DNA of 64,000 nt from an uncultured Acidobacteriota bacterium (GTDB lineage Bacteria > Acidobacteriota > Thermoanaerobaculia > Gp7-AA8): the NCBI GenBank assembly GCA_963822445.1, contig CAWGHO010000003.1:1120001-1184000 (forward strand), in the 5' to 3' direction. Below, in pieces: positions 10,496 to 14,698 of this stretch (position 1 is its first letter; each line of letters starts with the position of its first letter). Made by a program: the position numbers and the translations under genes. Below the pieces are notes generated by a model that did not search any database, had not been told where the DNA came from, and worked only from the letters and a program-made list of their open reading frames with translations.

Positions 10496-10756
10496 TGAGC
10501 CATCCTAAGCGAATCCTGCAACGACTTCGCTCTCTCCATTACTTTCCGTGCAAACGGCCGGCCGCGCTCAGAATTGCGGCTGACGCAAATATGTGCACGA
10601 ATGTTGCAACTTGCGGGAACCGGCCGATTCGAGCGAGCGAGGCATCCGGGCCGCCGAGCTGAGCGTACCGGCCAACGTTCTGATACCGGCGATCGACGCA
10701 ATCCGCAGGCGTCGGTCGCCGGGTTTTTTGGCCCGGTTGTTGCGGCCGCGCCCGCC

Positions 10757-11614
10757 ATGGCCGCCGCCATCAGTCACGCCGAGTCTCTCCGCGAATACGG
10801 GCGCGGCCTCGCCGGCGGTCTGATCTTCAGCCTTCCTCTTCTCTACACGATGGAGATGTGGGCGGTCGGGTCGCTCGTCCGTCCGGAACGCCTCCTCGCC
10901 TATCTCGTTTTCGTCTTCCTGCTGCTGCTCGGCTACAACCGCTACGCCGGCCTGCGTCATGACGCGGGCTGGGCCGAAGTCGCCATCGATTCGGTCGAAG
11001 AGCTGGGCCTGGGAGTCATCACCTCGGCGGCCCTGCTCTTTCTGATCGGGCGCATCGGGCCGGAGTCCACCTTCGCCGAAGCGTTCGGCCGGATCATCAC
11101 CGAAGCGGGCGTGGTCGCCATCGGCTTCTCGATCGGCACCGCGCAACTCGGGGCCGAGGACGAAGGGGAGTCGGGGATGGGCGGCGCGCAACGCCGCGGG
11201 AAAAACGAGCACGAAACGGTGCACTTCGGCGGTCAGCTGGTGATCACCTTGTGCGGCGCGGTGCTGTTCGCGGCGAATGTCGCGCCGACCGAGGAGATCC
11301 TGATCATCGCCATCGAGACCCCTCCCGCGCGGCTGCTCGGTGTGGCCGCGCTTTCGTTGCTGATCGGCGCGCTGATCCTGTACTTCACGAACTTCGCGAG
11401 CGCATCCCGCTACTCACCGACCGAGACGCACGGCCAGGCCATTCGCGGCACGATCGTCACCTACGCGCTGGCGCTGGTCGCCTCGGCGTTCATCCTCTGG
11501 TTTTTCGGACGCTTCGACGATCAGGGCCTCGAGGTCTGCATCGGCCAGATCATCGTCCTCGGTCTGCCATCAACGCTCGGCGCATCCGCGGGAAGGCTTC
11601 TGCTGCAAGCATGA
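10757..11614 (+). CDS. TIGR02587 / DUF2391 family integral membrane protein
   Basis: SLPLLYTMEMW, ANVAPTEEI, GASAGRL; start reassigned to ATG 10757. Confidence 0.85.
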   Translation: MAAAISHAESLREYGRGLAGGLIFSLPLLYTMEMWAVGSLVRPERLLAYLVFVFLLLLGYNRYAGLRHDAGWAEVAIDSVEELGLGVITSAALLFLIGRIGPESTFAEAFGRIITEAGVVAIGFSIGTAQLGAEDEGESGMGGAQRRGKNEHETVHFGGQLVITLCGAVLFAANVAPTEEILIIAIETPPARLLGVAALSLLIGALILYFTNFASASRYSPTETHGQAIRGTIVTYALALVASAFILWFFGRFDDQGLEVCIGQIIVLGLPSTLGASAGRLLLQA

Positions 11615-11994
11615 AAAAACACGAGAAGAACGCCGTGGAGTGGAGCGTGTTCGCGGTCAGCGCAGTCATCGTCGCGCTGGCGGTCGGATATCTGGCGATG
11701 GCAGCGATTCGCTCAAAGAAGGTCGCTCCCGATCTGCGGATTACGACCGGGTCGGCGTCGGCGACGAGCGCCGGTCATCGCGTCGAAGTGAAGGTGCGGA
11801 ACGCGGGTGACACGAGCGCGGAGCAGGTGCGGATCGAAGTGAGCTTGCGGCGCGGCGAGGAAGAGGTCGAGAGCGCGGAGCTCGACATCATTTACGTTCC
11901 GCGAAAATCGGAGCGCACCGGCTGGGTCACCTTCCGCAACGATCCCCGCTGCTGCTCGATCGCCACGCGGGCCATGAGCTACGACACGCCCTGA
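11611..11994 (+). CDS. TIGR02588-like partner protein
   Basis: KNAVEWSVFAVS TM, VRNAGDTSAEQVRIEV, GWVTFRNDP; ATGA overlap with the upstream gene. Confidence 0.8.
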   Translation: MKKHEKNAVEWSVFAVSAVIVALAVGYLAMAAIRSKKVAPDLRITTGSASATSAGHRVEVKVRNAGDTSAEQVRIEVSLRRGEEEVESAELDIIYVPRKSERTGWVTFRNDPRCCSIATRAMSYDTP

Positions 11995-12110
11995 AAAAAA
12001 AACTGCCGGACACCGGCTGTGGTGAGTGTCCCGGAAGGAGCTTCCGAGTCCACATCCGGCGTCCGGCCACCCTCTCCCCACCTCTAGCGAGAGGGATGCT
12101 CCGGAATCGT
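11994..12110 (-). other. Structured intergenic region / probable minus-strand terminator
   Basis: IRs ccctctc..gagaggg, cggaag-gag-cttccg, ggacac..gtgtcc, followed on the minus strand by a T9 tract (A-run 11994-12002). Confidence 0.55.
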
Positions 12111-12122
12111 GTTACCGACTGC

Positions 12123-12191
12123 TCAGCCTCCAGGGACGGACAAACGGTGATCCAGTACAACCAGTACGACCAGGATGATGACCGTTTCCAC
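12123..12191 (-). CDS. Unannotated 22-aa peptide METVIILVVLVVLDHRLSVPGG
   Basis: GTG at 12191 preceded by a strong GGGAGGGG SD, TGA at 12123-12125; follows the TPR gene on the same strand. Confidence 0.6.
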   Translation of the reverse strand: METVIILVVLVVLDHRLSVPGG

Positions 12192-12267
12192 GTACCCCTC
12201 CCTTCTGCCCCGCTTGGGCGGACGAATGGAGGGCCCTCAGTAAGGAGTGTCGTGAGTCGGGAAAACC

Positions 12268-13620
12268 TTAGTTCAGCGTGGGGGGCACGAATGGCGTGCC
12301 GTGCTGGTCGGGGTGGGATTCGAGGTATTCGCGGACGTGGCGGACGAGCTGCGGCGTGACCGCGCCCGTGGCAAATGCTTCCTGCAGAAACGCGAGTGCG
12401 GTCAGCGCGTTGCCGGTCATTCCGACGGCGGTGAAGTTGCCGACCAGCCCTGAGCAAAGGTCGGCCGCTTCCGTCGCACCGGCGACGGTGCCGGCGGCAA
12501 GGAGGACTTCCGCGATGTCGAGCGTTACCAACGCCGCGTCGGTTCGCGCGCCGAGCTCCTCGAATTCGCGGCGGGCCTCGCGCAGGCGCGCCAGCCCCTC
12601 GGCCGTATCGCCCGCGGCAATGCGCAGGCAGCCGATGTTCCAGCGCGTGCGAATCCGCTCGGTCTCCAGGCCGAGGGCCTCGTAGAGCGACAGGGCGCGG
12701 GTGAAGTACGAGTCGGCGGAGGAGAGCTCGTTGAGGCGGAGCTGGCAGTTGGCGATGTTGAGGTAGAGCCGCGCCAGCGACGCGGCATCGCCGAGACGCT
12801 TGGCGACGTCGAGCAGAGACAGGAAGAGCTCGCGCGCTTCGCGGAAGCGGCTGTGATCGAAGAGGATCGCTCCCTCGAGGATCTTCGCGTGCACGTAACG
12901 CTCGTCTTCACCAAATTGCCGGAAGACGCGCGCGCTCTTTCGCGCGAGACGCACCGCGTCCTCGAGCTTTCCCGTCTCCAGGAAAATGACGGCGCGCGAG
13001 TACTCGACGATCGCCGTCCAGTACACAGCCACCGGCGAAGCGGAGTACGCGCGCTCGGCGATGTCGAGAGCATCGAGCGCTTCCGGATGGCGGCCGAGGT
13101 AGCGGAGCACGTTGGCGCGCTCGAGCCAGGAATCGCCGCGCATCTCGTCGATCAAAGGCTGTGGATAGCGCTGACTCCCGAGCTGATCGGCGATGGCGAT
13201 GGCCGCGTCGGCGACGACCAGCGCGTGCATCGGCTGCCGCTCGCGAAGCGATCGCGATTCAGCGCACAGACGCCGCACTACGCCGGCGGTGTGCATGGCT
13301 GGAATCGAGCCGACGTTCGCGCGACGGAAGGAGACCGGACTGGCCACGAGCGGTCCGAGGAGATCCGCGGCATCGGCGTCTTCTTTCGCCAGCATTTCGG
13401 CCAGCACGCGGATGGCCTCGGGCGGATTCGCCGAAACCGCGCCGGCCAGTTCCCAAAGCGACTCCGCGGAAAGCGCGGCGTCGAACGCGCGCAGCTCGTT
13501 GAGCAGCGCGCGACATTGCCCACAGGCTGAAACGTGCGCCTCGAGCGCATCGCGTGCGGGGAAGGTTTCAGGATCGTCGAGGTAATCCTGGAGAGCGGTC
13601 TCGTCGTAGTGACCGCTCAC
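12268..13620 (-). CDS. Soluble zf-HC2 (ZAS anti-sigma-like) domain plus TPR-repeat protein
   Basis: N-terminal H...LQDYLD...HVSACGQC (HxxxCxxC), then TPR-like helical repeats; no TM segment seen; GTG overlaps the sigma stop. Confidence 0.8.
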   Translation of the reverse strand: MSGHYDETALQDYLDDPETFPARDALEAHVSACGQCRALLNELRAFDAALSAESLWELAGAVSANPPEAIRVLAEMLAKEDADAADLLGPLVASPVSFRRANVGSIPAMHTAGVVRRLCAESRSLRERQPMHALVVADAAIAIADQLGSQRYPQPLIDEMRGDSWLERANVLRYLGRHPEALDALDIAERAYSASPVAVYWTAIVEYSRAVIFLETGKLEDAVRLARKSARVFRQFGEDERYVHAKILEGAILFDHSRFREARELFLSLLDVAKRLGDAASLARLYLNIANCQLRLNELSSADSYFTRALSLYEALGLETERIRTRWNIGCLRIAAGDTAEGLARLREARREFEELGARTDAALVTLDIAEVLLAAGTVAGATEAADLCSGLVGNFTAVGMTGNALTALAFLQEAFATGAVTPQLVRHVREYLESHPDQHGTPFVPPTLN

Positions 13621-14159
13621 GGTTTGTTCTCCTTCAGCGCGGCATAGGCCTCGCGTACCCGCTTGCGACAGCCATGCAGAAGTTGGAGAACGTATCCCGT
13701 GGTCGTGCCGAGGCGCTCAGCCATCTCGGCCGCCGAATATCCCTCGGCGTAGAACATGTGCAGCGTCTCACGGCACTTTGGATCGAGCTGACTCAAGGCC
13801 ATCGCCATCGTAACCCGGTCGACGATGCGACCTTCCAGGCCGGAAGAGTCAGGATGTACGTACTCGGCGAGGTCATCCGGAAACTGACAGGTGCGTGCTG
13901 CCGCGCGCCAGTACGCGCGGCTTGCGTGGCACACCGCGCCGACCAGCCATTTGCGCGCGTCGCGCACGGAGTCGTGCCGCGTCAGATAGGAAGTGAAGAC
14001 CTCGTTGACGATGGCCTCGGCATCGCAGGGCGGAATGTTGAACTTCTTTTCCGCGATGGCGCGAAGGCGCGAGGCATGGCCGTTGTACGCGTCTTCGACG
14101 CGTCCCGTGTGACGACCTGGCTTGTTAGCCGGCGAATCATCGTCGCCGGGCGGACCCAT
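13617..14159 (-). CDS. ECF-type sigma-70 factor
   Basis: Region 2 DAEAIVNEVF..WLVGAVCHASRAYWR; region 4 LSQLDPKCRETLHMFYAEGYSAAEMAERLG; TATACT 6 nt upstream of the ATG. Confidence 0.85.
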   Translation of the reverse strand: MGPPGDDDSPANKPGRHTGRVEDAYNGHASRLRAIAEKKFNIPPCDAEAIVNEVFTSYLTRHDSVRDARKWLVGAVCHASRAYWRAAARTCQFPDDLAEYVHPDSSGLEGRIVDRVTMAMALSQLDPKCRETLHMFYAEGYSAAEMAERLGTTTGYVLQLLHGCRKRVREAYAALKENKP

Positions 14160-14203
14160 GCCGGCAGTATATTCGCGGGCCGGGAGATCACAGGAGGAAT
14201 TGC

Positions 14204-14698
14204 ATGTCGCTGGTCAGCGCCATTCTTGGAGAGCTGGAACAGGAATCACGGACGACGAGGAAAGTACTAGAGCGCGTTCCGGACGACAAACTGGGCTGGG
14301 CGCCGCATCCGCGGTCGATGACGCTGGGCCGGCTGGCGTCGCATATCGCCATGGTCCCGTCGCGTGTATTGCTCTGGCTGCGTGCAGGCGAGTTCGATCT
14401 CGTGAATGCCGGCCCGGCGCCGGGACTGGACCAGACGGCGTTGATCGTCGCCGCGTTCGAGAAGAACCTCCAGGAGATTCGCGAGCACCTCGTTTCGATC
14501 GATGACTCCGTGCTCAAGGAGCCGTTCACGCTCAAGAAAGAGGGAAACACGGTCGCCTCGCTGACGAAGATCGGCATCGTGCGCTCGGTCCTCCTCAATC
14601 ACACCTACCACCACCGCGGACAGCTGTCCGTTTACCTGCGATTGCTCGATGTCCCGCTGCCGGCGATGTACGGACCGTCAGCCGACGAGCAGATGTGA
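14204..14698 (+). CDS. DinB/YfiT-like metal-binding protein
   Basis: WAPHPRSMTLGRLASHIA and NHTYHHRGQLSVYLRLL; AGGAGG SD. Confidence 0.9.
   Translation: MSLVSAILGELEQESRTTRKVLERVPDDKLGWAPHPRSMTLGRLASHIAMVPSRVLLWLRAGEFDLVNAGPAPGLDQTALIVAAFEKNLQEIREHLVSIDDSVLKEPFTLKKEGNTVASLTKIGIVRSVLLNHTYHHRGQLSVYLRLLDVPLPAMYGPSADEQM

Follow-up and report, generated by a model that had tools for sequence, protein, structure and literature searches.

Does the 22-codon open reading frame found behind a sigma factor gene and its anti-sigma gene in an uncultured Acidobacteriota bacterium represent a gene, and if it does, is its product read by the neighboring anti-sigma protein? The question is raised by a locus within a stretch of 64,000 nt (hereafter the window) of contig CAWGHO010000003.1, which belongs to a genome of the Thermoanaerobaculia, designated G000 here. 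The locus is proposed to be a unit of three genes: that of a sigma factor of the extracytoplasmic function (ECF) type, that of a soluble anti-sigma factor with a zinc-binding anti-sigma (ZAS) domain and tetratricopeptide repeats (TPRs), termed ZAS-TPR, and a small open reading frame (sORF) for a peptide of 19-27 residues. A first-pass annotation of the window had likened this arrangement to the RRNPP systems, in which TPR receptors bind small peptides encoded by adjacent genes, and had proposed that the C-terminal end of the peptide could control release of the sigma factor. Coordinates of all features are in Table 1.

A frame of 22 codons is trivial when taken alone, and it is because of its conservation as coding sequence in relatives that it is not regarded as a chance frame. 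Exactly 76 nt separate the anti-sigma gene from the sORF, and a ribosome-binding site, GGGAGGGG at 12202..12195, is followed by TAC and then by the start codon. This gap, the strong Shine-Dalgarno sequence and a 22-aa product with a hydrophobic core and a polar tail are as the first-pass annotation had described them, with the exception of the start codon, which is GTG and not ATG. Orthologs of the ZAS-TPR gene (E≤1e-100) are present as single copies in 25 of the 124 genomes of the Thermoanaerobaculia family. The annotation had suggested, as a check, that small frames be sought downstream of homologous TPR genes. A homologous sORF is found in all 25 genomes, one of which (G025) is flagged as unpublished, and in 24 it lies downstream of the ZAS-TPR gene on the same strand. 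In these 24 linked loci the gap extends from 76 nt to about 1.6 kb and is mostly within about 330 nt; the larger gaps, of about 0.4, 0.5, 1.1 and 1.6 kb, are those of G018, G081, G009 and G026, respectively. In G081 (locus L080, genus g34) anti-sigma gene and sORF are separated by the insertion of a gene judged by eye to be SnoaL-like. A GGAGG-type ribosome-binding site is present in nearly all sORF homologs, and GTG is the start codon of most. The sORF is single copy in G000, and its peptide has an E-value of 1.8e-7 in the search with the peptide profile.

The codon alignment of the sORFs displays synonymous change throughout, with all four codons in use at the invariant Pro and again at the invariant Gly. 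The ratio of nonsynonymous to synonymous polymorphism (pN/pS) is 0.33 in the last eight codons and 0.72 in the hydrophobic part, compared with 2.1 and 1.07 in the two shifted frames. These comparisons show the sORF to be a real gene that is under purifying selection and strictly co-occurs with sigma/TPR pairs, and the constrained part of the peptide is the polar C-terminal tail rather than the hydrophobic part. Genomes G011 and G024, which are without a sigma/TPR ortholog, have kept the RNA element that surrounds the sORF and have lost the sORF itself. Thus the RNA can persist alone, and the peptide gene goes with the pair. The sORF also illustrates that functional genes of about 20 codons escape annotation.

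The peptide, 22 aa long in the window and 19-27 aa across 26 aligned members, is built of a hydrophobic core of 11-13 residues and, at its C-terminus, a conserved heptapeptide, [R/V]-[L/I]-S-[I/V]-P-x-x-COOH, which in the window is RLSVPGG. The tail is nearly unchanged over 17 species of the genus. The residue right after the core is basic in most members, and small residues precede the tail in many (LAS-R, YAS-V and SGG-V, the hyphen marking the start of the tail). An acidic residue is present within the first five positions in 18 of the 26 peptides, and a basic residue ahead of the core in only one. When 22 members were compared with Pfam and NCBIfam, none reached a cut-off; the best matches were to Ost4 (E 0.022, three members), Ibs_toxin (E 0.04, one member) and GspH (E 0.47, one member). 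An assignment to the Ibs-like type I toxins is not supported: Ibs_toxin is matched by 1 of the 22 members, at 14.4 bits, where the cut-off is 27.

A search with the peptide profile (E≤0.01) gives 31 matches, spread over 30 of the 124 family genomes, with 23 of the matches at orthologous loci and eight at new loci (G077, G078, G110, G092, G030, G117, G126 and a second locus in G031). The sORFs of G027 and G082 fall below the profile threshold, yet they were seen directly. With the exception of the copy in G007, all profile matches adjoin a sigma/ZAS-TPR pair. Among 401 sampled genomes of the class, all matches at E≤0.001 belong to this one family, and the 304 genomes of 22 other families have none.

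Each of the eight new loci has a distinct ECF sigma/ZAS-TPR pair that is 27-41% identical to that of the window. In G126 the sORF is downstream of the pair, as in the window. The remaining seven have an sORF that is divergent from the sigma gene and runs convergently with a further TPR gene; one of the seven, that of G031, is split over three frames. The N-terminus of the further TPR protein weakly resembles an XRE-type helix-turn-helix (HTH); of four proteins tested, two match HTH_31 (E 7e-5 and 4e-4), both below the cut-off. In the structure model this N-terminus forms four short helices at a predicted local distance difference test score (pLDDT) of about 60-70. Fold and profile matches of this protein, which include Rap, give the same picture as those of ZAS-TPR described below. 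The peptide tails differ by clade. Those of the ortholog clade and G126 end in ...PG[T/S/G], and those of the second clade in ...PDP, ...PHG, ...PNG or ...PHP. In a receptor tree, obtained by a quick search on 39 rows that leaves out hundreds of other paralogs, the PG[TSG] clade and the P[DHN][PG] clade each have an SH-aLRT support of 98, and six paralogs without an sORF fall outside both. A comparison of 16-kb neighborhoods shows only the TPR and sigma genes to be conserved; no conserved exporter, protease or importer was found near the compared loci.

The 450-aa protein encoded next to the sORF has a ZAS domain at about residues 1-60 and a TPR solenoid of about eight repeats at about residues 68-450. 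The Pfam model zf-HC2 matches at threshold (23.2 bits, cut-off 22.2), and the HxxxCxxC motif (H29, C33, C36) together with H4 is invariant across 87 aligned ZAS-TPR orthologs. The protein is placed with the ZAS anti-sigma factors by its N-terminal H-x3-C-x2-C and by the ECF sigma gene that its gene adjoins; sigma binding is predicted. A weak match (E 0.02) relates the N-terminus to the anti-sigma factor RslA (3hug_B). The remainder matches TPR_12 (E 1.7e-17) and also TPR_1 and TPR_2. No convincing transmembrane segment was detected by Kyte-Doolittle analysis with 19-residue windows, the top mean being 1.81 at residue 362. In the AlphaFold2 model (mean pLDDT 90.1) the residue-362 stretch is an Ala/Leu-rich helix within the TPR solenoid. 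Since the most hydrophobic stretch is a helix inside a confidently modeled solenoid, the protein is considered soluble, and the first-pass description of an HxxxCxxC motif followed by TPRs, with no transmembrane segment, holds. In databases the orthologous proteins are named just "tetratricopeptide repeat protein" or "zf-HC2 domain-containing protein".

A Foldseek search with the model finds LGN/Pins first, then RapJ with CSF, RapI, phi3T Rap and pLS20 Rap with Phr*, with E-values of 1e-7 to 1e-5. Profile matches of the TPR domain are, in order, LGN (7e-8), Pins, RapJ (1.5e-5), kinesin light chain, RapI, RapF, Hop TPR2A and NprR (0.013); PlcR, Rgg and AimR are not among the matches listed. The TPR domain resembles peptide-binding TPR solenoids in a generic way, which fits a peptide ligand without placing the protein in an RRNPP family.

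The ZAS-TPR orthologs of G026 (L016) and G018 (L017) begin at about residue 66, and the whole ZAS domain is gone. In both loci the sigma gene is still present upstream and the sORF downstream, with the tail variant GHLHIPGG in each. It should also be noted that ZAS-TPR genes are greatly expanded in the genus, with up to 27 matches per genome and nine in G000. A homologous ECF sigma gene is directly upstream in 10 of 18 paralog loci. One G000 paralog outside the window, C3:1071330-1072412, has an in-frame TGA.

The product of the sigma gene matches the NCBIfam model TIGR02937 (sigma70-ECF) over residues 22-171 of 180 with 46.8 bits (cut-off 42.9) and is thus assigned to the ECF (group 4) sigma-70 factors. 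Pfam detects region 4 alone, and PDB sequences give weak matches to SigL (6dv9_F, E 2.7e-4; 3hug_A, E 1.2e-3). The sigma and anti-sigma genes, both on the minus strand, overlap by 4 nt at the sigma stop, read GTGA, as had been noted in the first-pass annotation.

The sORF is embedded in a conserved RNA element that consists of a leader and a terminator. In an alignment of 15 loci, TAAG.TTT and ACACTC are invariant in the leader. Conservation has a sharp onset at TAAGGTTTT. The TAA of this motif is the anti-sigma stop codon in 10 of 17 loci compared, and the motif is retained even where the stop codon is elsewhere. The leader motif is found once each in 21 of the 124 genomes, and the reversed control pattern has 2 matches. 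The 3′ arm of the GAGGG/CCCTC hairpin, CCCUCC, can also base-pair with the Shine-Dalgarno sequence. This sequestering helix hardly varies, so covariation speaks neither for nor against it. The terminator hairpin displays the conserved motifs CTCCTTC and GACACTCACC, and in its two inner helices 9 of 12 pairs have changed on both sides; the observed covariation score is reached by 0 of 500 shuffles. A terminator scan places a terminator-like hairpin with a T-run at 12017..12005, just ahead of the stop of the convergent gene. The combination of terminator motifs occurs once in the genome. No Rfam family matches the element, and only a chance miRNA match (E 0.6) was returned.

The element also stands behind unrelated genes in G007, G011 and G024. 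In G007:C31 (L083) and G011:C347 (L099) it lies between an unrelated gene and a shared gene (...GKRILNSIRQL...) that is MarR-like by eye; the shared second insertion site suggests that the element can move as a unit. Loci of g34 do not have the ACACTCAC terminator element and have kept a related leader, TAATCATTT...GCGACACCCTC; the 3′ RNA element is either missing or of another form in g34 and the sister groups, with the sORF still present. No conserved -35/-10 sequences were found upstream of TAAGG in loci whose element is set apart from the anti-sigma gene, and a promoter of its own at TAAGGT, which fits TANNNT, is possible. With regard to transcription, RNA-labeled contigs from soil or rhizosphere cover 12008-12336 (X1, whose RNA status is a guess, and X2), and in the RNA-labeled libraries X3 and X5 the element is spanned by a relative's contig of 230 nt. 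These contigs are assembled and strandless, carry-over of DNA is possible, and the absence of sigma and anti-sigma cover is uninformative; they give a weak hint that the element is transcribed. When the 276-nt element was used in a DNA search, most matches were copies of a REP-like repeat (GCGGGGAGAGGGTGGCCGG...) that is unrelated to the system and was set aside. This repeat, CCCTCTCCCCGC..GCGGGGAGAGGGTGGCCGGAGGCCGGGTGAGGGG, is found in many copies in other family genomes, and the small hairpin of the element resembles part of it.

As to function, the peptide is probably the cognate ligand of the TPR domain, by whatever route it gets there. The tail is read as a TPR ligand because of the strict co-occurrence and joint loss of peptide gene and pair, because the polar tail is constrained, because two kinds of TPR protein accompany one kind of sORF, and because TPR protein and sORF persist together where ZAS is gone. 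The conserved C-terminal heptapeptide would sit in the TPR groove, and occupancy of the groove would alter the hold of ZAS on the sigma factor and so control sigma release. Concerning the route, we lean tentatively, at somewhat under even chances, to a cell-autonomous action from the cell's own membrane, since the N-termini are acidic rather than basic. The peptide would reside in the inner membrane, N-terminus outward and C-terminus inward, an orientation suggested by the acidic N-terminus and by the usually basic residue after the core. By the positive-inside rule such a residue would keep the tail in the cytoplasm, where the TPR domain is. The tail would there be shown to the TPR domain and would tether or gate the anti-sigma factor. 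Production of the peptide may in turn be set by the leader, with CCCUCC pairing to the Shine-Dalgarno sequence to control sORF translation. A structure prediction of the ZAS-TPR/peptide complex had a score of 0.00 in both runs, which were without controls, and weighs neither way; the first row of its peptide alignment is from G025, and that of its receptor alignment is apparently the G025 protein.

Several observations weigh against this picture. In the orthologs of g29, g34 and g37, whose tails are VISVPGT and VISIPGS, no basic residue follows the core, and thus the positive-inside argument fails for them. With 11-13 residues the core is short for a helix that crosses the membrane, and several cores contain Pro or precede Gly-Gly or Ala-Ser, which is more in keeping with a cleavable leader than with an anchor. 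The sORF of G007 is found on a different contig, where it follows an unrelated gene and is unlinked to the pair. No sORF was found in 20 paralog or weak-match loci, searched on both strands, nor elsewhere in G000; since most ZAS-TPR paralogs are without an sORF, TPR domains of such kind can work without this peptide. Finally, since relatives share traits, the match between receptor clade and tail does not count as independent evidence of co-evolution.

The comparison with RRNPP systems bears on whether the peptide might instead leave the cell. In the available part of PMC10075063, the RRNPP signature is given as a propeptide of 10-100 aa and a receptor of 250-500 aa with TPRs, encoded by direct neighbors; the propeptides have Sec signals or SHP leaders with N-terminal basic residues. 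The locus has in common with Rap/Phr, SHP/Rgg, PapR/PlcR, NprX/NprR and AimP/AimR a cytoplasmic, TPR-rich receptor in the 250-500 aa range and an adjoining small peptide gene. Further likenesses are the conserved C-terminal part of the peptide, its length of about SHP size, the matches to the Rap fold and the HTH-like TPR receptor at the sister loci. It differs in its host, a diderm of the Acidobacteriota, in its output, a ZAS anti-sigma domain beside an ECF sigma gene, in the acidic rather than basic N-terminus of the peptide, and in a homology that is only at the generic TPR level. The RRNPP likeness drawn in the first-pass annotation stands for the small peptide, receptor size, TPRs and adjacency; homology to a known RRNPP family and occurrence in Firmicutes or their mobile elements are not seen. 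The locus is not filed as an RRNPP member because these homology and taxon features are absent, and by analogy it may work like an RRNPP system.

Quorum sensing of the RRNPP kind by an export route, in which the peptide is cut after its hydrophobic part and the C-terminal 7-8-mer builds up outside the cell and is re-imported to bind ZAS-TPR receptors or, at sister loci, HTH-TPR receptors, is considered unlikely. Four of five features of the RRNPP signature are found, and a length of 19-27 aa is near the bottom of the 21-50 aa range of validated propeptides (PMC10075063, available part). The small residues before the tail resemble a signal-peptidase or double-glycine site, the core is short, and the 7-8-mer released would be of typical pheromone length. 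Diversification of the tail between receptor clades, the weak XRE-like HTH at the N-terminus of the sister receptors, and Rap proteins among the top fold and sequence matches also agree with this route. As to the secretion feature of the signature, the hydrophobic region is present; the N-terminal region is without a basic residue in all but one peptide and is in most acidic, the reverse of Sec and SHP-type leaders. Also against export are the basic residue directly after the core in most members, the near constancy of the tail within the genus, the position of LGN/Pins above Rap with PlcR, Rgg and AimR not among the matches listed, and the outer membrane, which is a further barrier to the peptide in a diderm. 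Near the compared loci no conserved exporter, protease or importer gene is seen; such genes are not known to be adjacent in the RRNPP systems of Firmicutes either. The six Opp/Dpp-type binding proteins of the genome do not discriminate between the models. It is likewise improbable that this Thermoanaerobaculia family has a peptide-pheromone system of its own, in which RRNPP logic would have arisen outside of Firmicutes, with processed heptapeptides, ZAS-TPR or HTH-TPR receptors and at least three co-diversified specificity classes.

A role of the peptide as output should also be considered, i.e., as a small membrane protein made with or under control of the sigma factor, such as a membrane-stress effector, without contact to the TPR domain. 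The sORF is co-transcribed with or adjacent to the pair in all loci. The sister sORF is divergent from the sigma gene, and an ECF-promoter-like GGTAAC-N16-CAACT precedes its leader in 4 of 7 regions. The composition of the peptide is like that of mini membrane proteins, as reflected in the sub-threshold Ost4 and Ibs matches. However this role leaves unexplained why the polar tail and not the membrane part is most constrained, why seven loci have, beside the sORF, a second TPR gene whose N-terminal domain is of another kind, and why TPR protein and sORF persist after loss of ZAS, and we regard it as rather unlikely. It is very unlikely that the RNA is the product, as a 3′ untranslated region-derived or independent small RNA in which the sORF is incidental or acts only in cis, or, in a variant of this explanation, encodes a type I toxin-like peptide. 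Single-stranded ACACUC and CUCCUUC motifs are conserved, as are the leader and the terminator with its covarying helices, and the element survives without the sORF in G011 and G024 and is found behind unrelated genes. Against an RNA product are the purifying selection on the peptide in one frame only, the persistence of the sORF in g34 and the sister groups without the same 3′ element, and the absence of an Rfam match; the resemblance to the Ibs toxin, which would favor the variant, is weak and well short of the cut-off. Peptide and RNA functions could coexist in one dual-function RNA.

Among known ZAS/ECF pairs, SigL-RslA is similar to the pair described here in its H-x3-C-x2-C motif with an upstream His about 25 residues before, in its overlapping genes, and in the weak sequence matches. 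SigR-RsrA and RpoE-ChrR are further ZAS anti-sigma/ECF pairs. The pair differs from these in its sensor, a TPR solenoid of 380 residues and not a transmembrane segment, a cupin or nothing, and in the dedicated peptide gene that accompanies it. In sigma-E type systems a periplasmic PDZ protease reads a C-terminal tail (the YxF of outer membrane proteins by DegS, MucE by AlgW) and cleaves a membrane anti-sigma factor. The similarity is that the extreme C-terminus of another polypeptide would free an ECF sigma factor; here, in contrast, the tail would be read by the cytoplasmic TPR domain of the anti-sigma factor itself.

The ECF reclassification, in the part of PMC7826278 available, has soluble anti-sigma factors in 10 groups, and includes ECF42, with a C-terminal TPR extension, and ECF267, with a TPR-bearing FecR-like protein. 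In ECF42 as in the present locus, TPR repeats are a regulatory module of an ECF sigma factor. However in ECF42 they are fused to the sigma factor, and the same part of PMC7826278 mentions no anti-sigma or peptide gene with it and describes nothing that resembles this locus. In a full-text literature search, seen mainly at the level of titles and abstracts, neither a pairing of a peptide gene with a TPR anti-sigma factor nor RRNPP-type systems of Acidobacteriota were found. The inputs of soluble ECF anti-sigma factors are mostly unknown, and a co-encoded peptide is a candidate input that is genetically defined and can be synthesized directly. If the peptide binds the TPR domain, peptide-TPR signaling reaches into a scarcely cultured soil phylum of diderms, and is joined to an anti-sigma output not found described in the literature as searched at that level. 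The locus is proposed as a new case of peptide-TPR signaling in a diderm phylum with an anti-sigma output.

Table 1. Features of the sigma/ZAS-TPR/sORF locus and its surroundings (window coordinates)
Feature	Coordinates	Strand	Basis
ECF sigma factor gene, 180 aa	14159..13617	minus	TIGR02937, Pfam Sigma70_r4, PDB matches to SigL
ZAS-TPR anti-sigma protein gene, 450 aa	13620..12268	minus	zf-HC2, TPR families, AlphaFold2 model
sORF, GTG start, 22 aa, METVIILVVLVVLDHRLSVPGG	12191..12123	minus	homologs, tail pN/pS, profile match
Structured sORF leader	12270..12192	minus	alignment of 15 loci, consensus fold
Leader motif TAAGGTTTT	12270..12262	minus	conserved
Leader motif CGACACTCC	12252..12244	minus	conserved
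Hairpin arm GAGGG in leader	12238..12234	minus	conserved
Anti-Shine-Dalgarno CCCTCC	12233..12228	minus	paired with Shine-Dalgarno GGGAGGGG in consensus fold
Small hairpin CCCTCTC...GAGAGGG	12070..12095	minus	resembles multi-copy REP-like repeat of this bacterial family
Long terminator hairpin and T-run	11994..12068	minus	terminator scan, covariation
Terminator motif CTCCTTCC	12040..12033	minus	conserved
Unpaired terminator motif GACACTCACC	12030..12021	minus	conserved
TATACT hexamer, -10-box-like, 6 nt 5′ of sigma ATG	14166..14171	minus	putative promoter element
DinB-family gene, divergent	14204..14698	plus	Pfam DinB, E 7e-12

Upstream of the sigma gene, TATACT is present 6-8 nt 5′ of the ATG in 18 of 21 upstream regions of orthologous loci compared, and a Shine-Dalgarno sequence is absent before the ATG. 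The closeness of TATACT to an ATG without a Shine-Dalgarno sequence suggests that the sigma mRNA is leaderless. The sigma/anti-sigma operon looks to have a housekeeping-type -10 box and no obvious ECF autoregulatory promoter; a scan for sigma-70 consensus promoters gave 0 sites. Sister loci display the same -10-like motif, GCTATACTTC on the sigma strand, with a distance to the ATG of about 45 nt as measured in one locus. At these loci GGT(A/C)A(C/T)-N16-C(A/G)ACT is found before the sORF leader in 4 of 7 upstream regions (L116, L117, L136 and L137), and it could be an ECF-type -35/-10 pair that forms a target promoter of the adjacent sigma factor.

On the other side of the locus, a gene pair on the plus strand, for a TIGR02587 family membrane protein (10574-11614) and a TIGR02588 family protein (11611-11994), is convergent to the sORF element. 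This pair is not conserved as a neighbor, TIGR02588 being found in one other locus only. A homolog of the divergent DinB-family gene is found in nine further distinct orthologous loci, six of genus g1 and three of genus g34. It is divergent from the sigma gene in the six g1 loci; in the three g34 loci only its first 32-45 residues fall inside the fetched stretch. The DinB-family gene is a possible target of the sigma factor.

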